A DNA stretch of 64,000 nucleotides from Eledone cirrhosa (taxonomy: Eukaryota): the NCBI GenBank assembly GCA_964016885.1, contig OZ024743.1, positions 181,846,001 to 181,910,000 on the forward strand, in the 5' to 3' direction. The notes beneath the pieces were generated by a model. It searched no databases. It saw only the letters and a program-made list of their open reading frames with translations, and had not been told where the DNA came from. Position 1 is the stretch's first letter; each line of letters begins with the position of its first letter. Both the position numbers and the translations under genes were made by a program. This document shows, one piece after another, positions 17,788 to 45,903 of the stretch.

Positions 17788-17788
<1 letters not shown>

Positions 17789-18142
17789 GTGCCTGATTGT
17801 GGATGTGGCCTGCCCGTTCGACACGAGAGTGCAGGAGAAGGAGAGGGAGAAAATTAACCGATACCAGGACCTAAAGTGGGAGGTGAAAAGGATTTGGAAC
17901 TGCCATGAAGTCAAAGTGATCCCGATTGTCATAGGCGCACTGGGGACTATCTCCAAAAGTTTCCAGGGATGGTTAAAGAAAATCGGCCCCTTCACGCTTT
18001 TTGGAACGCTTCAAAAGGCATGCTTGCTTGGAACGGCAAGAACCCTCCGATACGTCCTGAATATCTGAGGCTGCAGGTAGTGGCTTGATATTCATTCCAA
18101 CGGACTTTCCAGTTAACCAACATCAATGACTGAGATTCAAGG
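17788..18142 (+). mobile_element. R4/Dong-like family A, 3' fragment (A2)
   Basis: Near-identical to 17387-17741; (AAT)n on both sides. Confidence 0.93.
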
Positions 18143-18154
18143 AATAACAATAAC

Positions 18155-18195
<41 letters not shown>

Positions 18196-18469
18196 TTTCA
18201 TTTATTAGCCACAAGGGCCGACATGTAGGGGACAATACAAAGACAGGGACAGTGGGGGTTTACAATAAGGTCGAGTAAAAGTGCACAATGGCAAGACTAA
18301 TTTAACAATGAAAATATAAAATATAAAATAAACTATGCAAAATATAACAAAATAAATTCCCCGATAGGGGGTGGACGAGCCTTGGGTGATTCGGGTACCC
18401 CACCAATCCTGAACCACCCTGCGCTTCTAGGGCACCCAGGAGAGCACCCCTCTCCTCAAGTTAGCTAGC

Positions 18470-21400: not shown

Positions 21401-21894
21401 AGGCTTTTGCACCCCCCGCTCCTATCGGCTACTCCCACACAATCCCAGCGTGCGTCTAAGATGCCATTCCAGTCCCCCGCTAACAGTAAAGGGCGAGACG
21501 TACCCAGAAAGGTCTCCAGGCGCCTAAAGAAGTCAGGTCGTCCGGCCCCTGTAGGGGCGTAGGCGGCCAGCAGTCTAAAGGCACCACCTTCGTTACTGCT
21601 CACATCCAAGACCACCAACTTACCGTCCGGGTCCCGGAAGATCGACCTTACCTCGAGATCCAGTCCTTTCCTAAACAGCACTGCCACCCCACCCCCCATT
21701 CCCGGCCTGCTAACAGATGCGAAGATCTGATAGTCGTCGAAAATGGGGGCTAGTGCACGCGTGTCGGAAATTCTGGTCTCGCTTACGGCAATCACATCCA
21801 TTTCCAGCGACCGGAGGTCGTTGAGCAGGCGACCCTGCTTCCAGGGTGACCCCAGGCCGCGAACATTTAAACTTTCTACTCTTAATATGGCCAT
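18470..21894 (-). pseudogene. Tx1-A ORF2 (APE endonuclease + RT + CCHC), frameshifted near 20180 and 18540
   Basis: SLNVRGL, VSETRI, AGDWN, SYIDR, YSDH, GPGYWKLN, NFRPITLLN, LDQSKAFDRV, RQGCPLS, AYADD, CPRC..HALVQC. Confidence 0.92.
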
Positions 21895-21903
21895 ATTGGT
21901 AAG

Positions 21904-23830: not shown

Positions 23831-24707
23831 GACCTGAACGTTGTTTACCGTTTCAAGGTCGAAAATTTCCTTAATTTTCTTTTGGTGGGGAAGCGATTTT
23901 TTTTTTTCGAAGATTTTAAAAATAAATCTGAATATTCGGGCTTAAAGCCCGAATATTGAGAGGTATCCCTCTCTTTAAATCAAGATGTGTACCTTAAGTT
24001 TCGTTAATGACAAGAAAATACAAAAAAAGACACTTTAAAACAGCTTAAAGCTACGAACCGTTTCCCCCGCAGACTTGTCTGTCTTCACACATGTGCGGCC
24101 AATAATAATAATAATAATAATGAGGAAAATGACAAAATGACTAAATAACTAAAGATAATTTCACCACCAACACCACCACCACTACCACGATAAAAACTCT
24201 GGTCAAGTCGACTCGACCGCTATTTCTACTCCAACTTCAACACCATCACTACAGTAATGCGAACACATCACCACCACCACTGCCTCATTATCGTTACCGC
24301 CGCTATTCTCTCCCACTACCTCCTGCTAGTTGCTGCTAGCACAGAACCGCCACCACCACCACCACCACTGCCTCATTATCACTACCGCCGCTATTCTCAC
24401 CCGTTGCCCCTGCTACATCGTAGAATCCACACTAAAAGAGGAAGGCATCAAAATATATAAATAGACTGAATTGATGACCCGGTCAAAATCAAAAAAACAA
24501 AAATCAAAATCAAAGCAGCACAGCAACAACGAAAAACGTAAAGAAAATAAGAATGAAGAGAAAAACAAACAGACGGACAGAGAAGGGAAGGGAAAAACTA
24601 AGTCAGACATTCAAACACTACATTACAATGAAACTTATGCTTATTCATTTTTGGGGGGTTTTTTGGCTGTTTGTTTGTTTATTTATGTTCGTCTACAGCG
24701 TGATAAT

Positions 24708-27700
24708 GCCACACAAAAATCACGTGGAGTGACGAAACCACCGGAGATGATAAATTCACCGGTGGTTATGTAACCATACATTCGCCAATCCTCGATAAGA
24801 GTGTTTAAATGTCGAACCTAAACAGTTCGAATAACGGTGAAATGGAGACTAGATTGTCATGTGACAGACTCTCACCCAACAGGTGCTCCCTGGCTCAGCA
24901 GCAGGGACCTGGCTGTCAACTGCTGGTATCGGAGGAAGAAGAAGGAAAGGGACCAGAACCAACTGGACGAAAGAATTGAATAGAACTGTTATGCAATGTT
25001 ACCTGAAGAGTAACCCCAAGGAGAAAGGCTATAGGAAACGGATGCATAACATCTGGAACGAGATTGGTCTATTTAAATTAGATGAACAAAAATTGGCCGG
25101 GCAGGCTCGGGTAATAAGAACTAATGGGTGGATAAGCGAGCTGGAACTGGAGGAACTGAGCAGAGAGATTAGCTTGGAGATGGAGAGTGAAGTATGCCAG
25201 GCAAACGAGCCAGTGAGAAATGAAGGTGAAGAGGTCGAGAGAACGGAGGAACCACCCCAAGCAGACAATGATCTGAATGCTGAGATAAATAATACCTGGA
25301 ACAGAGATACGGCCACTGAGGAGATGAATGCTGATGGGCTAGGACAAGATTTGGTTGATATCCTAAACTTAGTGGTAGATGAATTGAACAATGATAGTGG
25401 GAGACCTATGAACCTAAGATTTGTAGACAGGAAAAAGTTAAAAGAAACAACAGCTAAGGTAAACAAAGTCATCCCATACCTTGAGGCGAGGAGCCTTCAA
25501 CAGTGCAACAATATCCTCAAAGCAACAGCAAATACGGTGAGGAAACTACTTGGTATAAAAGCGAGAGGAAACAACAGACAAGAAGAAACGACTGAGTGGT
25601 CAAATCAGGGAGATGAGAAATGACATTGGAAAGCTTGTGTCCCTACTGAATGGGACACTAAAAAACATAGACACTAAAAATAGACTGGAAATAAAGTACA
25701 AAACTAGGAGGAAAAAGCTAAATATTATCATAGAGGAACTGAAGCAACGCATTGTAGCATAGAGTGCAAAGATTAGGCGATACGAGAACAGAGTCAGCCA
25801 GTATAGACAGAACCGCATGTTCGACAACAACCAGAAGATGCTGTTTGGACAGCTTGAAGGGAATGAAAGAGGCAACGACTTGATCCCTGAGGCGGAACAA
25901 ACTAAAACATTCTGGAGAGGAATATGGGAGCAGGATGTTAAACATAATGACCAGGCAGTGTGGATTGAGACAGTACAGTAGGAGATTAGTGAACAGGCAC
26001 ACCAACAAACTGATTTGAGTATCACAGTTGAAACTCTTAAGGGGCAGGCCAAAAAACTAACCAACTGGAAATCACCAGGCCCAGATGGTGTACAGGGGTA
26101 TTGGATTAAAAATATAACATCCCTCCACCCGAAATTGACAACCATGTTCAATGACTGCTTGATGTCAGGTGAGGTACCAGAGTGGTTGACAAAAGGTACC
26201 ACAGTTCTGATAATGAAAGACCGAATCAAGGGTAATGATGTTACCAACTATAGACCTATCACATGTCTGTCCGTAATGTGGAAACTGTGACAAGCATTAT
26301 GTCTGAGGAAATCTACCATCACCTCCACACAAACAACTTGTTACCGGACGAACAGAAAGGATGCCGAAAGAAGTCACGTGATACAAAGGACCAGTTACTT
26401 ATTGATAAGATGGTAATGAGGAATTGCAAGAGGAGACACACTGGTCTTGCCATGGGATGGATAGACTACAAAAAGGCATTTGACATGGTGCCTCATTCTT
26501 GGATCACCAAAAGCCTGGAGATCTTCAAGGTGGCAGATAACATCAGACAGTTGTTGGGCAAAAGTATGAAGTCCTGGGAAACAGAGTTAACATCAACTGG
26601 AGAATCCTTGGGAAGCGTGAAGATCAAGAGAGGTATCTTCCAGGGAGATAGTCTGTCCCCTCTGTTGTTTGTCCTTGCCCTGATGCCCCTGACCAGTGTA
26701 CTGCGAAAAGTGAGAGCAGGATACAGGTTGGGAAAGGGAGGGCTTACCATCTATCACCTCCTCTTCGTGAACGATCTTAAGCTCTTCGGGAAGAGAGAGA
26801 AGGAGTTGGATGTGCTTGTTGACACTGTCCGTATTTTCACCAATGATATATGTATGCAATTTGGTATTAGTAAGTGTGGAGTCATTGTGATGAAGAGGGG
26901 TAAGTTGAGCAGAAGTAACGGAATCCAGGTACAAACGGGTGAGATGATAAAGGAAATTGACTCTGAAGAAGGATACAAGTATTTGGTCGTTCTGGAGGCT
27001 GATGACATCAAGAACAAAAAAATGAATGAATTGATAAGAACTGAATACATTCGGAGAGTAAGGAGCGTATTAAAGTCACATCTGAACTGCAGGAATGCCA
27101 CAAGTGCAGTAAATTCCCGAGCTGTGTCTATTATTAGGTACAGTGCGGGAATTCTGAGATGGAATGTTGCTGAACAGAAAGAAATGGATAGGAAGACTAG
27201 GAAGCTATTGACTATCTACAACATGTTCCACAAGAGGAGTGATGTCAATAGACTCTACTTAAGGAGATCTGAGGGTGGAAGAGGTCTTATCAGCATAGAG
27301 GACTGTGTTCAGATGGAGAAAAACAACCTACACAAATACGTGACTGATAGTAAGGAGCCAATGCTCAGAACTGTATTGAAGGAGGGGACAATAGGCCAGG
27401 GGATGTCCAAGGAGGAAATAACATCAAGGAGAAAGAGCAGCCTTCAGGAAAAATCCCTTCATAGTACCTTCTTTGAGAAAACTGAATTTAGAGATCCACA
27501 GAATGGAACTGGTTGAAAAGAGGAGACCTTAAAAAGGCTACAGAAGGAATGTTAATGGCTGCGCAGGAGCAGGCCCTCAAAACGAAGTGGTTGAAACACC
27601 ATATTTACAAGGAGGAGGCTAGCCCACTGTGCAGGATCTGTGGAGAGAGAGAGGAGACTGTGGCTCACATTGTATCCGAGTGTAAACACCTAGCCCAGAC

Positions 27701-28278
27701 TCACTATAAGGGCTGGAGACATGATGTGATGGGCAGGGTGATCGACTGGCACCTATGAAAAGTAAACAATTTACCACATTCTGAGAAGTGGTATGAGCAT
27801 AAACCAGAGGCGGTGATAGAAAACGATTCGGTGAAGGTGCTGTGGGATTTTAGGATACAGACGGACAAGAAACTGGAACACAATAGACCTGACCTGGTGG
27901 TTGTGGACAAAGAAAAAAGATCGTGCCTGATTGTGGATGTGGCCTGCCCATTCGACACGAGAGTGCAAGAGAAGGAGAGGGAGAAAATTAACCGATACCA
28001 GGACTTAAAGAGGGAGGTAAAAAGGATTTGGAACTGCCATGAAGTCAAAGTGTACCCGATTGTCATAGGCGCACTAGGGACTATCTCAAAAAGTTTCCAG
28101 GGATGGTTAAAGAAAATTGGCCCCTTCATGCTTTTTGGAAGGCTTCAAAAGGCATGCTTGCTGGGAACAGCAAGAAACCTCCGATACGTCCTGAATATCT
28201 GAGGCTGCAGGTAGTGGCTTGATATTCATTTCAACAAACTTTCCAGTTAACTAACATCAATGACTGAGACTCAAAGAG
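24708..28278 (+). mobile_element. R4/Dong-like family A, near full length but decayed (A3); 5' boundary uncertain
   Basis: Collinear with A1, plus an N-terminal RTNWTKELNRTVMQCY motif; several stops and frameshifts; FMDD changed to FVND; (AAT)n tail. Confidence 0.9.
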
Positions 28279-28309
28279 TAATAACAACAATAATAATAAT
28301 AATAATAAT

Positions 28310-31300
28310 GATTTCTTTATTAACCACAAGGGTTTACATAAAGTAGACATTAAGGACAGTGCAGGACAATGCAGGACGGTACAAATGGGCATTTCTGCGT
28401 GTAAAAAACAAAAACAGAGGATGTAACAAAAAATAACAATGAAAAATTCCCCAATAGGGGGGAGACTTCGGAGGGACATTTGTGGAGAAAGCCCAGTAAA
28501 AAGCCACAATGACCCTGACCACCAAGGCAAGTGCCCTCTCCCAGTTTTCCACCTTTAATTTACAGATATATACTCAGAGTAGGCCCATTCACTCGGGCCA
28601 TTCTTGCTTCTCTCACCCATCTTTCAACAAAATGCTGGGAAGAGAGCACTTCCCTCTCTACTCTGATTTTCCTTTTCAAATGAAATTTGAAAAAGTCAAT
28701 CAGGGCATCACCGAAGAGGTAAGTGCTCGTCTTCAGCCCTTTCAAATGTGTCCACCATACTATCTCTTTCGCCATGGCCACCAGACAGATAAAAACTGCC
28801 TGCCCTTCCCGGCTAAAGGAGGAGGGCGGGGCAATCCTCACGATGGACTCAGATGATAGCCGGATCCGTCCTAAACGCGACAGCAGGTGTTCGACATAAA
28901 CCCACAAGTCAGCAATTTTCGGACACTGGACGAGTGCGTGCAGGACGGTTTCGTCGCCCTGCGCGCATCTCGGACATGCCCGGCTGACGGCACCTCCATG
29001 CCTGTAGAGTTTATCCCGAACTGGCAAGGCTCCTCGGTAGCACTGCCAGGCCAGAGATTTCTGGAAGTTGTCCATAGGCCCTGGCCCGAAAGTTCTTCCG
29101 AAGAGATTGGCTAGTTGATTTTCGTCGACGCCTAGAGTTTCCCCAAGTACGTCGTCGCTCTTCCCCTCCACTAATCCTCTATAGAACGCCGAGGTGGAGT
29201 TTCCACCGATCACATTGCCCGATTGGTCGAGGGCTGTGAGCGCCTGAAGACATTCCAGTCTCCAGGCGCTCCCTCTCGGTCTTCGCTTGACCCAGGACTG
29301 CAGCTCCGTCAAGGAAACGAGCTGGGGAAATACGTGTCTAGCAAACGGCGACCACACCTGATCACCGTCGAGGAAGAGGTGGAGATGTCATAGCCTGAGC
29401 GTGTGCCTGCGCATCATCAGCCACGGCATACCCAGCCCTCCACGTAGCGGGTGTTGACAACAGATGGACCGCCTGACCATCGGAGCACGTCCCTTCCACA
29501 AAAAGCGAAAGAGCAAACGCTCCAGCGCAGTCAGGCGAGGCTTAGGACAAGGTACGACGGTCAGGCGGTAGCAGATGACAGACGCGATGTACGCGTTAGC
29601 CACCTCCGCTCGACCTTTCAGGGATAGCTTCCTCTCCGCCCATTTCTGGGTGAGAGAAGCCACCCTGCTCGTCACCTCGTCCCAGTTTTTGTCCGTCTGG
29701 AGGTCTGGACCGAACCAGACCCCTAGCAATTTAACCGGTCCATCCATCCAGCGTCCGACGACGCTGTTGGACGGCATGGACCTGCCTCTCCAGGTGCCGA
29801 GCTGCAGGCCCACTGACTTTTCCTGGTTGATCATTGCTCCTGTCACCGCTTCGTATTATCTTAGTGTAGTGCCGATCGCCTCGATGTGTTTGGCGTTCGA
29901 CACCACTACGGTGACATCGTCTGCATATGCTGACACGGATCTTCCGCATCCTAGTTCGCGCGGGACCCCCCCTCAACGTCTCCAGTCTGTGCAGTAATGG
30001 CTCGAGAGTCAATACGTACAAGAGGGACGAGAGGGGACATCCTTGGCTGACCGAGCGCATGATGTTGAACGGTTCCGACAGGTGACCGTTCACTCTCACC
30101 ACAGAGCAGATGTCGCTGTGCATGGCAGCGATCCAGCCTCTGAAGACGGGCCCAAAGCCAGCCGCCCTCAGGACTGCCGCTAGGTAACGATGGTCGACCC
30201 TATCGAAAGCTTTCGACTGATCTAAATTGATCAAGGACCCACCCGTGCCAGGTTCCTTAGCTACCCTCTCTATGATGTATCGCATGAGGTGGAGGTTGTC
30301 GTGGATGGATCTATCGGGAATGGCGCATGTCTGCGCCTCTCCCACCAGACCACCAACGACAAGCGCCAACCTCTTTGCTAGCACCTTGGCCAAAATCTTG
30401 AACTCTGTGTTTAGCAGAGTTATGGGCCTAAAATTATCTATGTTATCCCCCTTGTTCGGATCCTTTCTCAGCAGTGCCACCGCTCCTCGGCTCACAGAAC
30501 TGGGAATTCTCCCGTTCTGTTGCCAGTTGCAGTAGACGTCCGCCAAGAGGCCTCCGAACAAGTCTGGCATCTGTACGTAAAGTTCATAGGGCAGACCATC
30601 CAAACCAGGCGATTTACCCCTTGTTCAGCCAGTCATTGCCTCCCTTACTTCAGCGGCTGTTATCGGCTTTTCGCAACACCTCGCCTCAGTGGCCGAGAGC
30701 CGCGGCAGTCCGTCGAGGTAGACACTAAAGTCCATCCCTCTACCCGGCCCACCGCTGCCCCCGAACAGCTGAGCGAAGTGTCGCTGAAAAGCTTCACACA
30801 TTTGCCCGGGATCGAGTAGCATGCGCCCGTCGTGGTCCACCAAAGACCGGATCGTGGCTTTGTTTCCACGACGCGCCTCCGCCACTCGGGCCCATTGAAC
30901 GGCTTTCGTCCCCTCGTGTCTGAGAGCACGCACCCTTGCTCTGACAACGCAGCCTTCGTGCTTTGCATTGAAGAATTGGTCAAGGGCCAATTTCGCCGCA
31001 AGCACGTCGGTCGCAATGCCTTTGCTAAGCGCCTCGTCTAATTTTCTAACTAGTTCTCCCTCTGCTCTATTTTTCTCTATTGCTAAAGCCTTACTAAACC
31101 TAATCGATTCTATTCTAATCGCTCTTTTCAGAGCAAACCACCACTTGTTGTTGACGATGGCCCCCGTCAACGCCCGCTTAACTAGTTCGCTAATCCGGTC
31201 TCTGTAGGCCTTGCGCGCTGGTAAGGACGCGTTTAGCTTCCAGTAGCCGGGTCCTCGTCTATGAAGCCTATCTAAGTCAAGCACACAGATCACGAATTTG

Positions 31301-34300
31301 TGGTCCGTGTAGCTGACTATCTTGAATTGTGGACAGCCTATGCTAGACCTATCTATTTCCCTACAAAATACTCTATCTAGATATGATCTGGATGACCCTA
31401 TGCGATTTGTCCAAGTCCACACTGGCACATTCGGGAAATCCAATCGGTACCTGTCAGACAGTTCAAAACGCCTGAGCAGGTTGGTGAGGCTCTTGCACCC
31501 TCCACCCCTATCCGCTAATCCCACACAGTCCCAGCGTGCATCTAAGATCCCGTTCCAGTCGCCCACTAACACTAAAGAGCGGGACGTTCCAAGAAAGGTC
31601 TCCAGACCCCGGAAGAAATCAGGCCGCCCTGCTCCTGTCGGGGCATAGACGGCCACTAGCCTGAAAGCTTGCCCTTCTCCGCTGGTCACGTCCAGCACCA
31701 CCAGCTTACCCTCTGGGTCCAGGAAGATGGCCCGTATGGCGAGATCCAAACCTCTCCGAAAAAGCACAGCAACTCCTCCACCCGATCCAGGACGGCTGGG
31801 AGATGCGTACAGATCGTAGCCGCCGAAGATCGGTGCGAAGGCCCGTGCTTCGGAGATTCTGGTCTCGCTGATGGCCACTACATCTATGTTTAGTGACCTG
31901 AGGTGGTTGAGCAGGTGACCCTGCTTCCATGACGACCCCAAGCCACGCGCATTTATGCTGCCTATTCTGAGTGAGGTCATGTTTAAAATAGAGTGGAAAC
32001 GATGGAAAAGACCACTTACCGTACTTTTGGTAGAGGAGGGATGGTTTTTACATCCCTTTTCACTTGTTCGTCTGGTGAAGGGACCGTTGAATCGTCCCTT
32101 CGGCTGGTCGTCGGCTCTTCTAAGAGAATGTCTGAATATACTCTTCGATTGATGGTTCCTCCTAGGTCCCTGAAATCACCAACTGCGTTGGGGAATTTCG
32201 TTTTAATGTTTGTGTATTGTTTCTGTGCTATTTTTAGCAGTCTTATGTTAGTTGGCGTTTTGATTGGTGCTGGTATTATGTAGTCGTGTTGTGAAATGTC
32301 TGTGTGTTCAATTATGTAAGTCATTAGTTTCTTGTTGTGTGTATTTATTGCCGTGCATTTGTTTTTCTGGGGGTGGGGTGTGGTTCTGCTATTTTCTTGT
32401 CGTTGTTGCTGGGTGTGTGTGTTTTGTTGTGTTTGCGATGTTGGTGCTTGTGGTGGTGGTGTTGAAGGTGTTGTTGGCGGTGGGGTTGTCGCCGGTGGTG
32501 ATGGTGGTGCTAGTGTGGGTGGTGATGGTGTTGGTGGTGTTGCTGCTGTGGGTCTCTTTGCAGTAGACTTTACCCTTTTCTCATTTCTTTCCTCCCTTTT
32601 CAAAGGCGACATTGCGCTGCTTTTGCGTTTGTGTCTTCTTACGACCTTTTGCCATCTCTCTCCCACCTCACACTCCATGTCTGATTCTGTGAGGTCGGGG
32701 AGGGATACCAGCTCCACTCTTTCACTTGTTGTTGTTGGTGATGTTTGCACTGGAGTCTCTGTTGCAGCTGTATTTGGTATTGCTGTTGTTGTTGTTAATA
32801 TTTCCACTGCTGCTGCTGTTTTTGATTTCCGTGGCGTGGGTATGGGTGCCACGGACCTATCGTTCCTGGTTGCCGCTTGTCCTGTTGCTGGTAGCCGTGG
32901 AGCCGGTTTCGGAAGGAGGGGGGTTTCTCCTTTCTCAGGGTCTTCTCGTTGCAGAAGGCCCTGAGGTGAGTCTTCGATCCACAGCGAAAGCATTTCGGGC
33001 GTTTTCCCTCAACACTTATGGGCAGTTGAGTGCCGTTATCGAAGTCTATCACATCCGGGATAGCTTCGATGCACTCCTGGTTGGTTTGGATTAGCATCTC
33101 AATGGAGGTGCCGACCCAATCTTCTCTTACTTTTTTCTGTACTTGCAGTACAGTTGTTTTGTCCTCGATTCCGACGAGGACAGACGCGGCCAGCCAAGAA
33201 GGGGCCATTCCGGGGGGGACGTGGGTCAGTTTGACCCTCACAATTTTTTGCCCGCAGTAGGAGGGCACCAACACCATTTCCTCGCTCCTTAGGGTCACTA
33301 CGGATTGGGCCTTTGCCTCCTGGGGTGTGGCAAAAAGTACGTCTACGGTGGCATATTTTTTGCCTCGGGTGATGTGCGTTTTCCGCTGCCACACAGACCC
33401 CAAGGCTTTTTGTATTTGAGCCTCTGTGGCTCTTTCCACCCTACGGGATTTTGTACTTACTGTACGGTACGTGACCGTACAGTGCTGTTGGGTTTCGAAA
33501 AATTTTTCCGCTGCCTTGCAGATTGCTCGGTGTCCATTCTTTGTCACCATCTTCTTCGCTTCCTCTAATTCCTCATTTGTTATGAGGATTGTTTCCAAGT
33601 TTTTCGCAATACCTGCAAATGAGATTGGTTTTTCTCTGCTGCTGTTGTTGTTGTTGTCGTCAGAGCTGCTGGTACTTTTGTTGTTGCTGCAGGTACTACG
33701 ATTACTGCCTCCGCCGCTGTTGCTGTGGTTGTTGTTGGTGTTGCTGCTGCTAATGCTGTTGTTGTTTATGCTGCTGGTGATGCTGTTGCGGCTGCTACTG
33801 TTGTTTTCATTGTCACTGTTGCTGTTTTTATTACGGCTGCTACTGCTATTATTCCTGACGTCAGACGAATGAACTGGGTTTTCGTATTTCCCGCACACCT
33901 GTTTCGTCGCTGTCGTCGTCGTCGTGGAGAAACCTTGCACGCTTTGCACGAGACTTTTATTTTCTTTCGTCGCTTGCGAAAGAGAAGGGAGGGAGAGAGA
34001 TACATTTAAAGAAGGGAGGGAGAGAGACAATCTTCTCTCTGCTGTAGTGACGATTGAGGAAAAAGAAGACGGAATGAGTGGGAGTGACCTATGAAAATTC
34101 TTTTTCGTAGCCATGTTGTTTTTTTGTTAAAAATAAATATTGGGTACAAAACCCCAATAAGCAGTTATTTAACCCCGAAGGGCCAAATAACGGGCAGAAA
34201 GACCCCTCTCACGAGGAGGAAGGTGTTTTTGTCTACAAGTTGGTCTAAGTTTTAAACAATTTACAATTGTTAAAGCGTTCAAAATTTACAGTACCTTACA

Positions 34301-34329
34301 GAGCCGAGCCTCCGTCAACCATAGCATTC
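28310..34329 (-). mobile_element. Tx1 family B copy 1, full length, inactivated
   Basis: Collinear with 37108-43104; ORF1 frameshift near 32930; ORF2 stops at 30625, about 29857 and 29388, and a frameshift near 29970; (AAT)n at both ends. Confidence 0.93.
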
Positions 34330-34367
<38 letters not shown>

Positions 34368-34368
<1 letters not shown>

Positions 34369-36055
34369 TCGATAGTTTGCCACACAGTTGGATTGAAAAA
34401 TGTTTAGAGATTTTCAAAATATCCCCCGTTGTCAGGAGGTTTTTGTCATTCAGTATGAAGACATGGAAAACGACACTCCTTTTGAATAGTGAAACAAAAT
34501 CACTGGAGCTGGAGAAGTTAATATTAATTGTGGAATTTTTCAGGGTGACTCTTTATCACCGCTTTTATTCTGCATCGCGCTTATACCATTAAGTAAAATG
34601 CTCAATGAAACAAAACATGGATATAAAGTCTATGACAAAACCATTAATCACCTGTTCTACATGGATGACCTGAAACTATTTGCAAAAAATGATGAACAAT
34701 TGCAAGGGCTATTATCCACTGTGAAGCAGTTCAGTGATGACATTAAAATGGAGTTTGGACTAGATAAATGCGCCAAAGCAACGTTCACCAGAGGAAAGCT
34801 GCTAAAGAGTTCAGACATTAATCTTGATCGGGGGAACGTGATAAGAGAACTTGATCAAGAAAAAACTTACAAATATCCAGGTGTTTGTGAAGGAGACGGA
34901 ATCAAGCACTCGACAATGAGGGAAAGGATAAGGAAGGAATGTTACCGCAGAGTAAGAGCAATCTTAAGAACGGAATTGAATGCAAGGAATAGGATCGATG
35001 CCATAAACACGCTTGCCATACCAGTAGTAACCTACAGTTACAATGTCATCAACTGGTCAAGCACAGAGATCCGTAGGCTCGATACAAAAATTCGAAAATT
35101 CTTAACCATGCACAGAATGCATCACCCTAAGGCAGATATAGATAGAATATATCTCCCTAGGAAAGAAGGAGGACGTGGGTTAATCCAGTTAGACATTGCG
35201 TTGAAAACTGCAACAATTGGATTATCTACATATCTAAGGGAATCACATGATTGGATGATCAAACTCGTTTTGAAACACGAAAGCATCAAAAGATCATATT
35301 CCATTACAAAAGATGCACAAAGATACAGTAATGGACTACAAATTTCAGAAGTCCCATTTACTGCTGAAATGGAAAACACAGAAAAAGCAAAGCAGGTAAA
35401 AGTAACTGCAAAGAAAGAACTGCTACAGAAACTGGCTAAGAAATGGCAAGAAAAGCCTCTGTATGGAAAATACCCAGAGCGAGCTAACAATCCTGATGTT
35501 GACAAAACTTTAACCCATCAGTGGTTGGCATCCTCTGGACTGAAATCGGAGACTGAAGGACTGATTATATCAGCACAAGATCAGTGTCTGCCAACAAAAA
35601 ATTACCAAGCCAACATAATAAAAAATAGGTGCAGCCCATTATGCCGTGTATGCAAAAAACAACCAGAGACCATTGACCATATAATTTCAATGTGCAGTCC
35701 TATAGCTCCAACCGAATACCTAAACAGGCATGACAGAGCTGCACAATACATACATTGGATAATGTGTAAGCATTTTGACCTGCCCCATCAAAACCTAAGG
35801 GGTCTAATGATTACTTATCGCAAATACCAGGAAACCCGCGTATAGGAGAAATACAAAAGATAGTACTAATGGGAACTGCCCATATACTAAGGAAGATTCT
35901 GTCAATATAAGTACATCACAAGTCTAAACACTAAAGATGCATGTGTGAATATGTATGTTCTTTCTTGAACATGGCGGACCTTGTTGTCTCTTGAGGTCAC
36001 TGGTTGTGACTTGGTGATAACTCGTATGAACATAAAGCAAGATAAATGCAACTGT
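34368..36055 (+). mobile_element. R4/Dong-like family B, 5'-truncated, with an internal deletion of the RLE core
   Basis: Starts at FDSLPHSW; LFYMDDLKLF, GGRGL, CRVC..HIISMC, RHD; about 300 bp missing at 35793 relative to 36516-36815. Confidence 0.9.
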
Positions 36056-36076
36056 AATAATAATAATAATAATAAT

Positions 36077-36262
36077 TGTTTCTACTTTTAGGCACAAGGC
36101 CAGCAATTACCCAGTTCATTACTGGTACTTTATTTTATCGACCCCGTAAGGATGAAAGGCAAAGTCAACCTCGGCGGGATTTGAACTCAGATCGTAAAGG
36201 GACGTAACTATGCTGGAAAGCATGGCGTCCGACCCTCTACCGTTACTGCCAATCCACCGCCC
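36077..36262 (-). mobile_element. tRNA-derived SINE family 1 with (ATT)n tail
   Basis: GGGCGGTGGATTGGCAG head, B-box GAGTTCAAATCC, central GCCTTTCATCCTTACGGGGTCGATAAAATAAAGTACC (Nin/Deu-domain-like), tail CCTTGTGCCTAAAAGTAGAAACA(ATT)n. Confidence 0.88.
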
Positions 36263-36263
36263 T

Positions 36264-37069
36264 CTGAAATCTGAGACTGAAGGACTGATTATATCAGCAC
36301 AAGATCAGTGTCTGCCAACAAAAAATTACCAAGCCAACATAATAAAAAATGGATGCAGCCCATTATGCCGTGTATGCAAAAAACAACCAGAGACCATTGA
36401 CCATATAATTTCAATGTGCAGTCCTATAGCTCCAACCGAATACCTAAACAGGCATGACAGAGCTTCACAATACATACATTGGATAATGTGTAAGCATTTT
36501 GACCTGCCCCATCAAAAGAATTGGTGGGAGCATCAACCACCTCCCATACTTGAAAAAGATCACATCTCAATCTTGTGGAACTTTAGCATCCAAACAGACC
36601 GAAAAATAGATGCAAATAGACCTGATATAATATTGAAGGACTTTAAAAAGAGGGTATGCCTGCTAATTGATATGTCTGTTCCAATAGACAAGAATGTATC
36701 TATAAAAACATTTGACAAATTGAGCAAGTATAAGGACCTGGAGATAGAAATTGGAAAAATGTGGAAATTGAGAACTAAAACAATACCAGTGGTTGTAGGC
36801 ACTCTGGGAATGATACCTAAGGGGTCTAATGATTACTTATCGCAAATCCCAGGAAACCCGCGTATAGGAGAAATACAAAAGATAGTACTAATGGGAACTG
36901 CCCATATACTAAGGAAGATTCTGTCAATATAAGTACATCACAAGTCTAAACACTAAAGATGCATGTGTGAGTATGTATGTTCTTTCTTGAACATGGCGGA
37001 CCTTGTTGTCTCTTGAGGTCACTGGTTGTGACTTGGTGATAACTCGTATGAACATAAAGCAAGATAAAT

Positions 37070-37070
<1 letters not shown>
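36264..37070 (+). mobile_element. R4/Dong-like family B 3' segment with intact RLE domain
   Basis: ETEGLIISAQDQ, CCHC, RHD, NRPDI..LIDMSVP..KLSKY; (AAT)n tail. Confidence 0.9.
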
Positions 37071-37109
<39 letters not shown>

Positions 37110-37370
37110 TTTCTTTATTAACCACAAGGGTTTACATAAAGTAGACATTAAGGACAGTGCAGGACAATGCAGGACGGTACAAATGGGCATTTCTGCGTGT
37201 AAAAAAAACAAAAACAGAGGAAGTAACAAAAATAACAATGAAAATAACAATGAAAAATTCCCCAATAGGGGGGAGACTTCGGAGGGACATTTGTGGAGAA
37301 AGCCCAGTAAAAAGCCACAATGACCCTGACCACCAAGGCAAGTGCCCTCTCCCAGTTTTCCACCTTTAGT

Positions 37371-40300
37371 TTACAGATATATACTCAGAGTCGGCCCATT
37401 CACTCGGGCCATTCTTGCTTCTCTCACCCATCTTTCAACAAAATGCTGGGAAGAGAGCACTTCCTTCTCTACTCTGATTTTCCTTTTCAAATGAAATTTG
37501 AAAAAGTCAATCAGAGCATCACCGAAGAGGTAAGTGCTCGTCTTCAGCCCTTTCAAACGTGTCCACCATACTATCTCTTTCGCCATGGCCACCAGACAGA
37601 TAAAAACTGCCTGCCCTTCCCGGCTAAAGGAGGAGGGCGGGGCAATCCTCACGATAGACTCAGATGATAGCTGGATCCGTCCCAAACGCGACAGCAGGTG
37701 TTCGACATAAACCCACAAGTCAGCAATTTTCGGACACTGGACGAGTGCGTGCAGGACGGTTTCGTCGCCCAGCGCGCATCTCGGACATGCCCGGCTGACG
37801 GCACCTCCATGCCTGTAGAGTTTATCCCGAACTGGCAAGGCTCCTCGGTAGCACTGCCAGGCCAGAGATTTCTGGAAGTTGTCCATAGGCCCTGGCCCGA
37901 AAGTTCTTCCGAAGAGATTGGCTAGTTGATTTTCGTCGACGCCTAGAGTTTCCCCAAGTACGTCGTCGCTCTTCTCCTCCACTAATCCTCTATAGAACGC
38001 CGAGGTGGAGTTTCCACCGATCACATTGCCCGATTGGTCGAGGGCTGTGAGCGCCTGAAGACATTCCAGTCTCCAGGCGCTCCCTCTCGGTCTTCGCTTG
38101 ACCCAGGACTGCAGCTCCGTCAAGGAAACGAGCTGGGGAAAAACGCGTCTAGCAAACGGCGACCACACCTGATCACCGTCGAGGAAGAGGTGGAGATGTC
38201 GTAGCCTGAGCGCGTGCCTGCGCATCATCAGCCACGGCATGCCCAGCCCTCCACGTAGCGGGTGTTGACAACAGATGGACCGCCTGACCATCGGAGCACG
38301 TCCCTTCCACAAAAAGCGAAAGAGCAAACGCTCCAGCGCAGTCAGGCGAGGCTTAGGACAAGGTACGACGGTTAGGCGGTAGCAGATGACAGACGCGATG
38401 TACGCGTTAGCCACCTCCGCTCGACCTTTCAGGGATAGCTTCCTCTCCGCCCATTTCTGGGTGAGAGAAGCCACCCTGCTCGTCACCTCGTCCCAGTTTT
38501 TGTCCGTCTGGAGGTCCGGACCGAACCAGACCCCTAGCAATTTAACCGGTCCGTCCGTCCAGCGCCCGACGACGCTGTTGGACGGCATGGACCTGCCTCT
38601 CCAGGTGCCGAGCTGCAGGCCCACTGACTTTTCCTGGTTGATCATTGCTCCTGTCACCGCTTCGTATTCTCTTAGTGTAGTGCCGATCGCCTCGATGTGT
38701 TTGGCGTTCGACACCACTACGGTGACATCGTCCGCATATGCTGACACGGATCTTCCGCATCCTAGTTCGCGCGGGACTCCCCTCAACGTCTCCAGTTTGT
38801 GCAGTAATGGCTCGAGCGTCAATACGTACAAGAGGGACGAGAGGGGACATCCTTGGCGGACCGAGCGCATGATGTTGAACGGTTCCGACAGGTGACCGTT
38901 CACTCTCACCACAGAGCAGATGTCGCTGTGCATGGCAGCGATCCAGCCTCTGAAGACGGGCCCAAAGCCAGCCGCCCTCAGGACTGCCGCTAGGTAACGA
39001 TGGTCGACCCTATCGAAAGCTTTCGACTGATCTAAATTGATCAAGGACCCACCCGTGCCAGGTTCCCTAGCTACCCTCTCTACGATGTATCGCATGAGGT
39101 GGAGGTTGTCGTGGATGGATCTGTCGGGAATGGCGCATGTCTGCGCCTCTCCCACCAGACCACCAACGACAAGCGCCAACCTCTTTGCTAGCACCTTGGC
39201 GAAAATCTTAAACTCTGTGTTTAGCAGAGTTATGGGCCGGAAATTGTCTATGTTATCCCCCTTGTTCGGATCCTTTCTCAGCAGTGCCACCGCTCCTCGG
39301 CTCACAGAACTGGGAATTCTCCCGTTCTGTTGCCAGTTGCAGTAGACGTCCGCCAAGAGGCCTCCGAACAAGTCTGGCATCTGTACGTAAAGTTCATAGG
39401 GCAGACCATCCAAACCAGGCGATTTACCCCTTGTGCAGCCAGTCATTGCCTCCCTTACTTCAGCGGCTGTTATCGGCTTTTCGCAACACTTCGCCTCAGT
39501 GGCCGAGAGCCGCGGCAGTCCGTCGAGGTAGACACTAAAGTCCATCCCTCTACCCGGCCCACCGCTGCCCCCGAACAGCTGAGCGAAGTGTCGCTGAAAA
39601 GCTTCACACATTTTCCCGGGATCGAGTAGCATGCGCCCGTCGTGGTCCACCAAAGACCGGATCGTGGCTTTGTTGCCACGACGCGCCTCCGCCACTCGGG
39701 CCCATTGCACGGCTTTCGTCCCCTCGTGTCTGAGAGCACGCACCCTTGCTCTGACAACGCAGCCTTCGTGCTTTGCATTGAAGAATTGGTCAAGGGCCAA
39801 TTTCGCCGCAAGCACGTCGGTCGCAATGCCTTTGCTAAGCGCCTCGTCTAATTTTCTAACTAGTTCTCCCTCTGCTCTATTTTTCTCTATTGCTAAAGCC
39901 TTACTAAACCTAATCGATTCTATTCTAATCGCTCTTTTCAGAGCAAACCACCACTTGTTGTTGACGATGGCCCCCGTCAACGCCCGCTTAACTAGTTCGC
40001 TAATCCGGTCTCTGTAGGCCTTGCGCGCTGGTAAGGACGCGTTTAGCTTCCAGTAGCCGGGTCCTCGTCTATGAAGCCTATCTAAGTCAAGCACACAGAT
40101 CACGAATTTGTGGTCCGTGTAGCTGACTATCTTGAATTGTGGACAGCCTATGCTAGACCTATCTATTTCCCTACAAAATACTCTATCTAGATATGATCTG
40201 GATGACCCTATGCGGTTTGTCCAAGTCCACATTGGCACATTCGGGAAATCCAATCGGTACCTGTCAGACAGTTCAAAACGCCTGAGCAGGTTGGTGAGGC

Positions 40301-40790
40301 TCTTGCACCCTCCACCCCTATCCGCTAATCCCACACAGTCCCAGCGTGCATCTAAGATCCCGTTCCAGTCGCCCACTAACACTAAAGAGCGGGACGTTCC
40401 AAGAAAGGTCTCCAGACGCTGGAAGAAATCAGGCCGCCCTGCTCCTGTCGGGGCATAGACGGCCACTAGCCTGAAAGCTTGCCCGTCTCCGCTGGTCACG
40501 TCCAGCACCACCAGCTTACCCTCTGGGTCCAGGAAGATGGCCCGTATGGCGAGATCCAAACCTCTCCGAAAAAGCACAGCAACTCCTCCACCGGATCCAG
40601 GACGGCTGGGAGATGCGTACACATCGAAGCCGCCGAAGATCGGTGCGAAGGCCCGTGCTTCGGAGATTCTGGTCTCGCTGATGGCCACTACATCTATGTT
40701 TAGTGACCTGAGGTCGTTGAGCAGGTGACCCTGCTTCCATGACGACCCCAAGCCACGCGCATTTATGCTGCCTATTCTGAGTGAGGTCAT
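37371..40790 (-). CDS. Tx1 ORF2p, 1139 aa: APE endonuclease, reverse transcriptase, C-terminal CCHC
   Basis: SINARGL, ISETRI, VGDWN, SYLDR, YTDH, KSPGLDG, DQSKAFDRV, RQGCPLS, YADD, CPRC...HALVQC. Confidence 0.95.
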   Translation of the reverse strand: MTSLRIGSINARGLGSSWKQGHLLNDLRSLNIDVVAISETRISEARAFAPIFGGFDVYASPSRPGSGGGVAVLFRRGLDLAIRAIFLDPEGKLVVLDVTSGDGQAFRLVAVYAPTGAGRPDFFQRLETFLGTSRSLVLVGDWNGILDARWDCVGLADRGGGCKSLTNLLRRFELSDRYRLDFPNVPMWTWTNRIGSSRSYLDRVFCREIDRSSIGCPQFKIVSYTDHKFVICVLDLDRLHRRGPGYWKLNASLPARKAYRDRISELVKRALTGAIVNNKWWFALKRAIRIESIRFSKALAIEKNRAEGELVRKLDEALSKGIATDVLAAKLALDQFFNAKHEGCVVRARVRALRHEGTKAVQWARVAEARRGNKATIRSLVDHDGRMLLDPGKMCEAFQRHFAQLFGGSGGPGRGMDFSVYLDGLPRLSATEAKCCEKPITAAEVREAMTGCTRGKSPGLDGLPYELYVQMPDLFGGLLADVYCNWQQNGRIPSSVSRGAVALLRKDPNKGDNIDNFRPITLLNTEFKIFAKVLAKRLALVVGGLVGEAQTCAIPDRSIHDNLHLMRYIVERVAREPGTGGSLINLDQSKAFDRVDHRYLAAVLRAAGFGPVFRGWIAAMHSDICSVVRVNGHLSEPFNIMRSVRQGCPLSSLLYVLTLEPLLHKLETLRGVPRELGCGRSVSAYADDVTVVVSNAKHIEAIGTTLREYEAVTGAMINQEKSVGLQLGTWRGRSMPSNSVVGRWTDGPVKLLGVWFGPDLQTDKNWDEVTSRVASLTQKWAERKLSLKGRAEVANAYIASVICYRLTVVPCPKPRLTALERLLFRFLWKGRAPMVRRSICCQHPLRGGLGMPWLMMRRHALRLRHLHLFLDGDQVWSPFARRVFPQLVSLTELQSWVKRRPRGSAWRLECLQALTALDQSGNVIGGNSTSAFYRGLVEEKSDDVLGETLGVDENQLANLFGRTFGPGPMDNFQKSLAWQCYRGALPVRDKLYRHGGAVSRACPRCALGDETVLHALVQCPKIADLWVYVEHLLSRLGRIQLSSESIVRIAPPSSFSREGQAVFICLVAMAKEIVWWTRLKGLKTSTYLFGDALIDFFKFHLKRKIRVEKEVLSSQHFVERWVREARMARVNGPTLSIYL

Positions 40791-40825
40791 GTTTAAAATA
40801 GAGTGGAAAAGATGGGAAAGACCAC

Positions 40826-42889
40826 TTACCGTACTTTTGGTAGAGGAGGGATGGTTTTTACATCCCTTTTCACTTGATCGTCTGGTGAAGGGACCGTTGA
40901 ATCGTCCCTTCGGCTGGTCGTCGGCTCTTCTAAGAGAATGTCTGAGTATACTCTTCGATTGATGGTTCCTCCTAGGTCCCTGAAATCACCAACTGCGTTG
41001 GGGAATTTCGTTTTAATATTTGTGTATTGTTTCTGTGCTATTTTTAGCAGTCTTATGTTAGTTGGCGTTTTGATTGGTGCTGGTATTATGTAGTCCTGTT
41101 GTGAAATGTCTGTGTGTTCAATTATGTAAGTCATTAGTTTCTTGTTGTGTGTATTTATTGCCGTGCATTTGTTTTTCTGGGGGTGGGGTGTGGTTCTGCT
41201 ATTTTCTTGTCGTTGTTGCTGGGTGTGTGTGTTTTGTTGTTGTGTTTGCGATGTTGGTGCTTGTGGTGGTGGTGTTGAAGGTGTTGTTGGCGGTGGGGTT
41301 GTCGCCGGTGGTGATGGTGGCGCTAGTGTGGGTGGTGATGGTGTTGGTGTTGTTGCTGCTGTGGGTCTCTTTGCAGTAGACTTTACCCTTTTCTCATTTC
41401 TTTCTTCCCTTTTCAAAGGCGACGATGCGCTGCTTCTGCGTTTGTGCCTTCTTGCGACCTTTTGCCATCCCTCTCCCACCTCACACTCCATGTCTGATTC
41501 TGTAAGGTCGGGGAGGGGTACCAGCTCCACTCTTTCACTTGTTGTTGTTGGTGATGTTTGCACTGGAGTCTCTGTTTCAGCTGCATTTTGTATTGCTGTT
41601 GTTGTTGTTAATATTTCCACTGCTGCTGCTGTCTTTGATTTCCGTGGAGTGGGTATGGGTGCCACGGACCTATCGTTCCTGGTTGCCGCTTGTCCTGTTG
41701 CTGGTAGCCGTGGAGCCGGATTCGGAAGGAGGGGGGTTTTCTCCTTTCTCAGGGTCTTCTCGTTGCAGAAGGCCCTGAGGTGAGTCTTCGATCCACAGCG
41801 AAAGCATTTCGGGCGTTTGCCCTCAACACTTATGGGCAGTTGAGTGCCGTTATCGAAGTCTATCACATCCGGGATAGCTTCGATGCACTCCTGGTTGGTT
41901 TGGATTAGCATCTCAATGGAGGAGCCGACCCAATCTTCTCTTACTTTTTTCTGTACTTGCAGTACAGTTGTTTTGTCCTCGATTCCGACGAGGACAGACG
42001 CGGCCAGCCAAGAAGGGGTCATTCCGGGGGGGACGTGGGTCAGTTTGACCCTCACAATTTTTTGCCCGCAGTAGGAGGGCACCAACACCATTTCCTCGCT
42101 CCTTAGGGTCACTACTGATTGGGCCTTTGCCTCCTGGGGTGTGGCAAAAAGTACGTCTACGGTGGCGTATTTTTTGCCTCGGGTGATGTGCGTTTTCCTC
42201 TGCCACACAGACCCCAAGGCTTTTTGTATTTGGGCCTCTGTGGCTCTTTCCACCCTACGGGATTTTGTACTTACTGTACGGTACGTGACCGTACAGTGCT
42301 CTTGGGTTTCGAAAAAATTTTTCGCTGCCTTGCAGATTGCTCGGTGTCCATTCTTTGTCACCATCTTCTTCGCTTCCTCTAATTCCTCATTTGTTATGAG
42401 GATTGTTTCCAAGTTTTTCGCAATACCTGCAAATGAGATTGGTTTTTCTCTGCTGTTGTTGTTGTCGTCAGAGCTGCTGGTACTTTTGTTGTTGCTGCAG
42501 GTACTACGACTACTGCCTCCGCCGCTGTTGCTGTGGTTGTTGTTGGTGTTGCTGCTGCTAATGCTGTTGTTGTTTATGCTGCTGGTGATGCTGTTGCGGC
42601 TGCTACTGTTGTTTTCATTGTCACTGTTGCTGTTGTTATTACGGCTGCTACTGCTATTATTCCTGACGTCAGACGAATGAACTGGGTTTTCGTATTTCCC
42701 GCACACCTGTTTCGTCGCTGTCGTCGTCGTCGTGGAGAAACTTTGCACGCTTTGCACGAGACTTTTCTTTTCTTTCGTCACTTGCGAAAGAGAAGGGAGG
42801 GAGAGAGACACATTTAAAGAAGGGAGGGAGAGAGACAATCTTCTCGGAATGAGTGGGAGTGACGTATGAAATTTCTTTTTCGTAGCCAT
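40826..42889 (-). CDS. Tx1 ORF1p, 687 aa: nucleic-acid-binding protein with CX2CX4HX4C knuckle
   Basis: GKRPKCFRCGSKTHLRAFC; ends 35 bp upstream of ORF2; N/S-rich and P/T-rich low-complexity regions. Confidence 0.88.
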   Translation of the reverse strand: MATKKKFHTSLPLIPRRLSLSLPSLNVSLSLPSLSQVTKEKKSLVQSVQSFSTTTTTATKQVCGKYENPVHSSDVRNNSSSSRNNNSNSDNENNSSSRNSITSSINNNSISSSNTNNNHSNSGGGSSRSTCSNNKSTSSSDDNNNSREKPISFAGIAKNLETILITNEELEEAKKMVTKNGHRAICKAAKNFFETQEHCTVTYRTVSTKSRRVERATEAQIQKALGSVWQRKTHITRGKKYATVDVLFATPQEAKAQSVVTLRSEEMVLVPSYCGQKIVRVKLTHVPPGMTPSWLAASVLVGIEDKTTVLQVQKKVREDWVGSSIEMLIQTNQECIEAIPDVIDFDNGTQLPISVEGKRPKCFRCGSKTHLRAFCNEKTLRKEKTPLLPNPAPRLPATGQAATRNDRSVAPIPTPRKSKTAAAVEILTTTTAIQNAAETETPVQTSPTTTSERVELVPLPDLTESDMECEVGEGWQKVARRHKRRSSASSPLKREERNEKRVKSTAKRPTAATTPTPSPPTLAPPSPPATTPPPTTPSTPPPQAPTSQTQQQNTHTQQQRQENSRTTPHPQKNKCTAINTHNKKLMTYIIEHTDISQQDYIIPAPIKTPTNIRLLKIAQKQYTNIKTKFPNAVGDFRDLGGTINRRVYSDILLEEPTTSRRDDSTVPSPDDQVKRDVKTIPPLPKVR

Positions 42890-43104
42890 GTTTTTTTTTG
42901 TTTAAAATGAAATTTTGGGTACAAAACCCCAATAACTGGTTATTTAACCCCGAAGGGCCAAATAACGGACAGAAAGACCCCTCTCACGAGGAGGAGGGTG
43001 TTTTTGTCTACAAGTTGGTCTAAGTTTTAAACAATTTACAATTGTTAAAGCGTTCAAAATTTACAGTACCTTACAGAGCCGAGCCTCCGTCAACCATAGC
43101 ATTC

Positions 43105-43142
<38 letters not shown>

Positions 43143-43143
<1 letters not shown>

Positions 43144-45844
43144 TCGATAGTTTGCCACACAGTTGGATTGAAAAATGTTTAGAGATTTTCAAAATATCCC
43201 CCGTTGTCAGGAGGTTTTTGTCATTCAATATGAAGACATGGAAAACGACACTCCTTTTGAATAGTGAAACAAAATCACTGGAGCTGGAGAAGTTAATATT
43301 AATTGTGGAATTTTTCAGGGTGACTCTTTATCACCGCTTTTATTCTGCATCGCGCTTATACCATTAAGTAAAATGCTCAATGAAACAAAACATGGATATA
43401 AAGTCTATGACAAAACCATTAATCACCTGTTCTACATGGATGACCTGAAACTATTTGCAAAAAATGATGAACAATTGCAAGGGCTATTATCCACTGTGAA
43501 GCAGTTCAGTGATGACATTAAAATGGAGTTTGGACTAGATAAATGCGCCAAAGCAACGTTCACCAGAGGAAAGCTGCTAAAGAGTTCAGACATTAATCTT
43601 GATCGGGGGAACGTGATAAGAGAACTTGATCAAGAAAAAACTTACAAATATCCAGGTGTTTGTGAAGGAGACGGAATCAAGCACTCGACAATGAGGGAAA
43701 GGATAAGGAAGGAATGTTACCGCAGAGTAAGAGCAATCTTAAGAACGGAATTGAATGCAAGGAATAGGATCGATGCCATAAACACGCTTGCCATACCAGT
43801 AGTAACCTACAGTTACAATGTCATCAACTGGTCAAGCACAGAGATCCGTAGGCTCGATACAAAAATTCGAAAATTCTTAACCATGCACAGAATGCATCAC
43901 CCTAAGGCAGATATAGATAGAATATATCTCCCTAGGAAAGAAGGAGGACGTGGGTTAATCCAGTTAGACATTGCGTTGAAAACTGCAACAATTGGATTAT
44001 CTACATATCTAAGGGAATCACATGATTGGATGATCAAACTCGTTTTGAAACACGAAAGCATCAAAAGATCATATTCCATTACAAAAGATGCACAAAGATA
44101 CAGTAATGGACTACAAATTTCAGAAGTCCCATTTACTGCTGAAATGGAAAACACAGAAAAAGCAAAGCAGGTAAAAGTAACTGCAAAGAAAGAACTGCTA
44201 CAGAAACTGGCTAAGAAATGGCAAGAAAAGCCTCTGTATGGAAAATACCCAGAGCGAGCTAACAATCCTGATGTTGACAAAACTTTAACCCATCAGTGGT
44301 TGGCATCCTCTGGACTGAAATCGGAGACTGAAGGACTGATTATATCAGCACAAGATCAGTGTCTGCCAACAAAAAATTACCAAGCCAACATAATAAAAAA
44401 TAGGTGCAGCCCATTATGCCGTGTATGCAAAAAACAACCAGAGACCATTGACCATATAATTTCAATGTGCAGTCCTATAGCTCCAACCGAATACCTAAAC
44501 AGGCATGACAGAGCTGCACAATACATACATTGGATAATGTGTAAGCATTTTGACCTGCCCCATCAAAACCTAAGGGGTCTAATGATTACTTATCGCAAAT
44601 ACCAGGAAACCCGCGTATAGGAGAAATACAAAAGATAGTACTAATGGGAACTGCCCATATACTAAGGAAGATTCTGTCAATATAAGTACATCACAAGTCT
44701 AAACACTAAAGATGCATGTGTGAATATGTATGTTCTTTCTTGAACATGGCGGACCTTGTTGTCTCTTGAGGTCACTGGTTGTGACTTGGTGATAACTCGT
44801 ATGAACATAAAGCAAGATAAATGCAACTGTAATAATAATAATAATAATAATTGTTTCTACTTTTAGGCACAAGGCCAGCAATTACCCAGTTCATTACTGG
44901 TACTTTATTTTATCGACCCCGTAAGGATGAAAGGCAAAGTCAACCTCGGCGGGATTTGAACTCAGATCGTAAAGGGACGTAACTATGCTGGAAAGCATGG
45001 CGTCCGACCCTCTACCGTTACTGCCAATCCACCGCCCTCTGAAATCTGAGACTGAAGGACTGATTATATCAGCACAAGATCAGTGTCTGCCAACAAAAAA
45101 TTACCAAGCCAACATAATAAAAAATGGATGCAGCCCATTATGCCGTGTATGCAAAAAACAACCAGAGACCATTGACCATATAATTTCAATGTGCAGTCCT
45201 ATAGCTCCAACCGAATACCTAAACAGGCATGACAGAGCTTCACAATACATACATTGGATAATGTGTAAGCATTTTGACCTGCCCCATCAAAAGAATTGGT
45301 GGGAGCATCAACCACCTCCCATACTTGAAAAAGATCACATCTCAATCTTGTGGAACTTTAGCATCCAAACAGACCGAAAAATAGATGCAAATAGACCTGA
45401 TATAATATTGAAGGACTTTAAAAAGAGGGTATGCCTGCTAATTGATATGTCTGTTCCAATAGACAAGAATGTATCTATAAAAACATTTGACAAATTGAGC
45501 AAGTATAAGGACCTGGAGATAGAAATTGGAAAAATGTGGAAATTGAGAACTAAAACAATACCAGTGGTTGTAGGCACTCTGGGAATGATACCTAAGGGGT
45601 CTAATGATTACTTATCGCAAATCCCAGGAAACCCGCGTATAGGAGAAATACAAAAGATAGTACTAATGGGAACTGCCCATATACTAAGGAAGATTCTGTC
45701 AATATAAGTACATCACAAGTCTAAACACTAAAGATGCATGTGTGAGTATGTATGTTCTTTCTTGAACATGGCGGACCTTGTTGTCTCTTGAGGTCACTGG
45801 TTGTGACTTGGTGATAACTCGTATGAACATAAAGCAAGATAAAT

Positions 45845-45845
<1 letters not shown>
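43143..45845 (+). repeat. Near-identical direct copy of block 34368-37070 (Dong-B + SINE at 44852-45037 + Dong-B 3' segment)
   Basis: Constant offset of 8775 bp; same truncation, deletion and SINE; I noticed only one substitution. Confidence 0.95.

Positions 45846-45903
<58 letters not shown>
45846..45903. repeat. (TAA)n tract at the right boundary of the array
   Basis: Seen directly in the sequence. Confidence 0.95.

Follow-up and report, generated by a model that had tools for sequence, protein, structure and literature searches.

The 64,000-nt stretch of DNA analyzed here (the window) contains an intact copy of a young non-LTR retrotransposon, likely from the Tx1 clade and likely active, that is found almost exclusively at ATT repeats. 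This preference probably arises through a short nick motif, likely Y|ATTAT(T/A), in combination with likely pairing between the repeat and the element RNA. The observations support the flanking ATT repeat as the target of insertion rather than a tail of the element. The motif cut by the endonuclease is likely short, Y|RTTATW as read from target-site duplications, and it is chiefly full-length copies that show the strict preference for arrays. Near-identical copies with intact open reading frames (ORFs) suggest that the element is likely still active.

A target that is likely new, ATT, and a likely cephalopod host are added to the few APE retrotransposons known to be sequence-specific. The system also offers a natural comparison between an APE and a restriction-like endonuclease that use one repeat on opposite strands, with a SINE that reveals where the cut falls. 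The element makes up a sizeable share of a 3-Gb genome and accounts for long stacks of retroelements at AAT markers. Because intact copies exist, endonuclease and integration assays are directly feasible.

Structure and Coding Capacity of the Intact Copy

The copy of principal interest, c3, and its immediate flanks consist of the following features.

37108..43104, minus strand: c3, a full-length family-A LINE of the L1/Tx1 type, 5997 bp, with a 5' UTR of 215 nt and a 3' UTR of 263 nt
40826..42889, minus strand: ORF1 of c3, open, 687 aa
37371..40790, minus strand: ORF2 of c3, open, 1139 aa
43105..43143, minus strand: (ATT)13 array forming the 5' flank of c3
37072..37107, minus strand: (ATT)12 array forming the 3' flank of c3 and doubling as the 3' boundary of a plus-strand Dong-like element

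Both ORFs are open at the lengths given in an earlier sequence-only reading. ORF2 matches the Pfam families PF03372, PF00078, and PF13966, corresponding to APE, RT, and a C-terminal zf-RVT/CCHC domain. Alignment to the human L1 endonuclease identifies the APE motifs SINARG, ISETR, VYAP, GDWN, YLDR, and YTDH, and the RT motif YADD lies at aa 685. The best match among solved structures is human L1 ORF2p (E 2e-51), with R2 a weaker match (E 2e-22). ORF1 has a single zinc knuckle, CX2CX4HX4C, at aa 362, and a Pfam search gave no match above the cut-off and showed no RRM. It shares a conserved core with the ORF1 of family B (35% identity), and its N- and C-terminal parts are of low complexity. A fold of the ORF1 core predicted without an alignment was set aside at a pLDDT of 33. 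The 3' UTR ends in AATAAA-GAAATC, placing AATAAA 6 nt upstream of the element end. An Rfam scan of window positions 36000-46000 gave no match, and a protein atlas search with the element returned only generic APE-RT clusters.

An ORF2 with an N-terminal APE, an RT, and a C-terminal CCHC/zf domain places the element in the L1 group. From this architecture and the target specificity described below, we infer membership in the Tx1 clade. In a quick RT tree built without named Tx1 references, the families from this genome form one clade (SH-aLRT 100) beside relatives of ~40% identity. No named Tx1 element was among the homolog matches, where the sole homolog with a species name came from Argonauta hians (58% identity), which makes an octopod host likely. 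No ATT or AAT arrays were found at 72 loci of metagenome relatives; these are too remote to be informative here, the full-length ones having ~23-33% identity.

A Stack of Retroelements Separated by AAT Arrays

The intact copy sits within a long stack of retroelements that includes two other full-length copies of the Tx1 type.

14325..45903, both strands: retroelement stack, 31.6 kb, with 12 (AAT)n arrays as separators
18194..24100, minus strand: c1, family B, 5907 bp, ORF2 split, ~75% DNA identity to c3 across ORF2
28310..34329, minus strand: c2, family A, 6020 bp, ORF2 frameshifted, 101 substitutions relative to c3
43144..45846, plus strand: fragments of a Dong/R4-like RT and restriction-like endonuclease (motif recognized by eye) with an inserted SINE, near-identical to 34369-37071
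44852..45037, minus strand: SINE of ~186 nt, similar to the 3' end of the LINE in its final ~20 nt (CCTTGTG..TAA.A..AA), with a second copy at 36077-36262

Every Dong-like element in the stack lies on the plus strand and every Tx1-type element on the minus strand. The RT elements whose C terminus carries a restriction-like motif are ones that we take to be Dong-like (R4 clade). Two such families occur at 14697-17741, 24122-28278, and 34369-36054, all on the plus strand and bounded by (AAT)n. The window also holds a 401-bp tandem duplication at 17387-18188 and, at 8438-10236 on the minus strand, an unrelated RT element with C2H2-like fingers at its C terminus, which is presumably RTE-like and terminates close to a degenerate (TAA)n at 8290-8366.

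The three Tx1-type copies fall into two families, as had been proposed from the sequence. At their 5' junctions, G is found immediately 3' of (ATT)7, (ATT)13, and (ATT)13 in c1, c2, and c3, respectively. At their 3' junctions, GAAATC is followed by (ATT)13, (ATT)7, and (ATT)12 in identical phase, and poly(A) is absent. The earlier description of these junctions is correct for all three copies, but those of c2 and c3 are not independent. An 8.8-kb direct repeat contains both copies, and its 2.8-kb non-Tx1 portion differs by one substitution and the length of an ATT run; with flanks this similar, the window offers only two independent 5' junctions. The same 2.8-kb sequence brackets c3 as a near-identical direct duplication (34330-37107 and 43105-45903). 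This duplication could be linked to retrotransposition, could result from unequal exchange via (AAT)n, or could be a haplotype mis-join.

Genome-Wide Junction Census

A genome-wide census of element ends bears out the proposal that the repeat on the 5' side reflects targeting. The family-A 5' end, used as an exact 26-mer, occurs 2369 times in the 3.0-Gb genome, and ATTATT lies directly upstream in 2320 of these. Family C, with 2568 matches, has in-phase ATT upstream in 100/100 of the matches listed. It shares a common ORF2 with family A (98% amino-acid identity in the RT) but has a different 5' UTR and ORF1. The family-B 5' end has 131 matches, and ATT-type repeats adjoin 98/100 of those listed. 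The earlier claim that G directly follows ATT therefore describes families A and C, whereas most joints in family B, counted by eye, read (ATT)nAT|GG, with ATT|GG in 14/100 of the matches listed. The 3' end of the A/C type has 9667 matches; by eye, among the 100 listed, ATT comes next in 98, ATTATT in 92, and four or more perfect ATT units in 81. Because the census patterns do not admit one of the letters at a single flank position, these counts are lower bounds, amounting to at least about 5000 5' ends and at least about 9700 3' ends.

Control DNA consisted of 20 evenly spaced 10-kb stretches (200 kb in all), in which 0.16% of positions have ATTATTATT in the 21 nt upstream of them. Among the first 60 3' ends in positional order, 34 belong to copies that extend to an A or C 5' end, and (ATT)n lies upstream of every one of these. 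Of 62 near-full-length copies examined, 11 have both ORFs intact, four of them from the positional sample. Nearest neighbors among these copies are up to 99.6% identical, and the nearest sampled copy to c3 has 99.42% identity. Among the matches listed in an RNA search, none was an RNA that carries the element.

Such a distribution might also be left by weakly specific insertion if selection purged the copies outside arrays, and stacks on a common target would indeed be harmless locations. The census makes this highly improbable. Arrays of (AT)n are far more common than those of (AAT)n (410 versus 17 in the control DNA) and yet stay unused, the insertions have a fixed orientation and phase, and the same pattern is found in young copies of 98-99% identity.

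Compound microsatellites with (CTT)n on one side of the element and ATT on the other were seen at five loci (L070, L226, L229, L309, and L310).

The Repeat as Target Rather than Tail

A repeat that flanks an element can also be one that the element brings along. If the RNA carried an (AUU)n tail at its 3' end and an (AUU)n leader at its 5' end, copying both into unspecific sites would let the element make the arrays in which it is found. The in-phase 5' joint agrees with such an origin in being near perfect in families A and C, although it is looser in family B and in truncated copies, and arrays on the 3' side run a little longer than those on the 5' side (median 13 versus 10 units). Three lines of evidence nevertheless leave this explanation quite unlikely.

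First, copies truncated at the 5' end, in ORF2 or in the 3' UTR, cannot bear a 5' RNA repeat, and they still adjoin arrays. ATTATTATT adjoins 14/37 of them against a background of 0.2%, a ~180-fold enrichment; the 14 include one internal deletion and one ambiguous case. This part of the census favors targeting over a tail. In the other 23 of the 37, a perfect 5' array is replaced by (CTT)n, (ACT)n, a short stretch of ATT, or no repeat at all, and some of these array-less copies probably reflect later deletions or insertions.

Second, the target duplications that were inspected start without extra units at the ATT that immediately follows the 3' end, which identifies the ATT as target DNA; the opposite-strand nick would fall at T|R.

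Third, a flank is often the ATT-bounded end of another element. Among the 120 flanks of 60 copies, 41 are Dong-like, all in the opposite orientation, and eight are SINE sequence. Another 22 match LINE references in the same orientation, and 20 of these are element ends. An insertion inside continuous Dong sequence, which would indicate RNA-borne repeats, was found in none of the 60 copies. An empty-site search in public contigs covered two loci, where the flanks are repetitive and a joint across the element was not among the matches listed.

A Probable Short Nick Motif and a Preference for Long Arrays

The SINE provides a view of the cut site. Its link to the LINE consists of ~20 nt of similarity and a common polarity. 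Of 128 SINE copies with a 3' end, 32 are in arrays and 96 outside. Duplications were found in 47 of those 96, compared with 5.5 under shuffled pairing, and have a median length of 16 bp (range 10-26). Their consensus is Y|RTTATW, with C or T at position -1 in 42/47 and G in none. Pairing by the A-ending RNA of the SINE cannot account for this pyrimidine.

Just two ATT units follow 362 of the LINE 3' ends, and 40 cases picked by hand among the first 100 of these serve as a sample of sites with little ATT. Seven of the 40 copies extend to an A or C 5' end. Among the remaining 33, eight have duplications of 13-22 nt starting at ATTATT, and two more duplications recognized by eye bring this to 8-10 of 33. 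In near-full-length copies, an informative duplication was found in 2/62, which is not clearly above shuffled pairing, since 13 of 200 shuffles also reached two.

A simple alternative, implied by the wording of the earlier sequence-only reading, is that the endonuclease alone recognizes long (ATT)n arrays and that RNA pairing and homology play no part. The ATT|G and C|ATT phases fit T|A cuts on both strands, and endonuclease specificity is named as the main determinant in PMC4494074. Even so, an endonuclease acting by itself is an unlikely explanation, given that isolated ATTAT sites serve as targets for truncated copies and for the SINE and that the second-strand ends of the SINE and of family B are not phase-locked. 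Furthermore, full-length copies account for 7/40 at the short sites, which were hand-picked, versus 34/60 in the positional sample (Fisher p = 1.5e-4). In the control DNA, 61/727 motif sites are located in such arrays, and the 81% array share of the LINE thus demands a further step beyond the motif. The original proposal of (ATT)n specificity stands, with the refinements that the nick motif looks short and that only 14/37 truncated copies adjoin an array.

The preferred reading, a short nick motif combined with RNA-repeat pairing, would work as follows. A nick by the endonuclease at T|R on the (AAT) strand would release an end that primes reverse transcription at the ...GAAAUC(AUU) terminus of the RNA, such that no poly(A) would be copied. 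A second nick 10-25 nt downstream would give rise to the target duplication, which would be undetectable within a pure array. The duplication would leave ATT on both sides, presenting a new target for the next copy. In a more tentative step, base pairing at both ends may underlie the added preference for long arrays as well as the nearly invariant ATT|G joint of full-length copies, with AUU units co-transcribed from the flanking arrays doing the pairing. The position of AATAAA 6 nt before the element end means that RNA cleavage would occur within the array. Pairing between the RNA 3' end and the target has been reported for the I factor, R1Bm, and R2Ol (PMC6007223).

Relationship to Known Site-Specific Elements

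Among APE LINEs, site-specific members are said to occur in the Tx1 and R1 clades alone (PMC6007223), and the junction census found target-site specificity here. The Tx1 clade is described with an ORF1 of the RRM/zf-CCHC type (PMC5203782). It includes the microsatellite-specific families Kibi at (TC)n, Koshi at (TTC)n, and crocodilian elements at (TTCC)n/(TTTC)n (PMC4494074, PMC3812793). These are likewise APE-type, L1-related LINEs with two ORFs. The present element differs in its ATT unit, in having no preference for pyrimidine-rich repeats, in its likely octopod host, and in its thousands of full-length copies. The targets (TC)n, (TTC)n, (TTCC)n, and (TTTC)n were not found as its sites; (CTT)n flanks few copies, and on one side. 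Microsatellite specificity has been defined as more than 20% of flanks lying in one repeat type (PMC4494074). In this case, the share is 98% of family-A 5' ends and, for 3' ends, 81-98/100 among the matches listed.

Dong elements provide a second comparison, with a common trinucleotide target and a precedent in molluscs. Dong, DongAg, and DongBg target TAA, and DongBg is from a snail (PMC3812793). In Octopus vulgaris, Dong-R4 and L1-Tx1 are both among the recently active groups (PMC13282606). Targets are not named in the portions available of two octopus papers, PMC13282606 and PMC9115989, the latter of which discusses Dong.

Dong elements of the R4 clade have a single ORF with a C-terminal restriction-like endonuclease. 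The Dong-like neighbors have this type of endonuclease and face the opposite way, whereas the two ORFs and N-terminal APE of c3 rule out a Dong identity for it.

Human L1 nicks at a pyrimidine-purine step and makes duplications of roughly 10-25 bp. It resembles the present element in the nick step and duplication size, as well as being the best structure match. The differences are that integrated copies here lack poly(A), the motif is ATTAT rather than TT|AAAA, ORF1 is of the CCHC type, and more than half of the copies sampled extend to the 5' end.

In the R1 clade, Waldo, Mino, and SART1 show similar APE-driven insertion into short tandem repeats and require several units (PMC3812793, PMC7265360), although they belong to another clade. 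SART1Bm requires a poly(A) tail, unlike the element described here, whose integrated copies have none.

An ATT-specific Tx1 element was not found in the literature searched on Tx1 targets, a search with Repbase/Dfam and the PMC4494074 target list outside its scope. The lifestyle itself is already known from microsatellite-specific Tx1 and TAA-specific Dong elements, and ATT is likely a new target variant of it.

Tandem Arrays and a Possible Route to Completion of the 5' End

Two loci carry the element in head-to-tail arrays. One (G000:C1:441095001-441144000, L312-L318) has nine family-A 5' ends and the other (C2:188047001-188084000, L319-L323) has five. In both, an identical imperfect ATT spacer of 51 or 54 bp is repeated, with one spacer trimmed so that it begins at a second C|GTTATT site. 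Across the two arrays, 7/11 neighbor pairs, which are not independent of one another, are identical over the first 1.2-5.5 kb and divergent further 3'. The remaining four pairs differ from position 287-460 onward. The duplicated-spacer layout also occurs at L270 (59 bp), L301 (50 bp), L219 (34 bp), and in the window (2.8 kb). Between c3 and c2, identity is limited to the first 107 nt.

These patterns raise the possibility, which we put forward tentatively, that this LINE superfamily finishes its 5' end through homology rather than end joining. A cDNA primed at an ATT site would pair with the array, or would invade a neighbor and copy its 5' part and spacer. For L1, the cDNA has been described as pairing with homologous DNA close by (10.1101/2024.08.27.596794). 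Completion through homology would account for the high proportion of full-length copies and the 98% of exact ATT|G joints, for swaps of the 5' UTR and ORF1 among families on a common ORF2, and for identical imperfect spacers between neighbors that are alike at the 5' end and unlike at the 3' end. If so, the 2.8-kb duplication at c3 would be one such event. The array and spacer pattern could also come from unequal crossing-over plus conversion or, for the window, from a haplotype mis-join.

Switches of the 5' UTR and ORF1 at or near the start of ORF2, in several families with a common ORF2 or 3' end, were seen at L071, L072, L074, L076, L078, L087, L085, L197, L204, and L209. Families besides A, B, and C exist among the copies with switched 5' UTR/ORF1. 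In the region L061:7600-8001 (element orientation), a tandem satellite has apparently formed from a short piece of the 3' region of the LINE ORF2.
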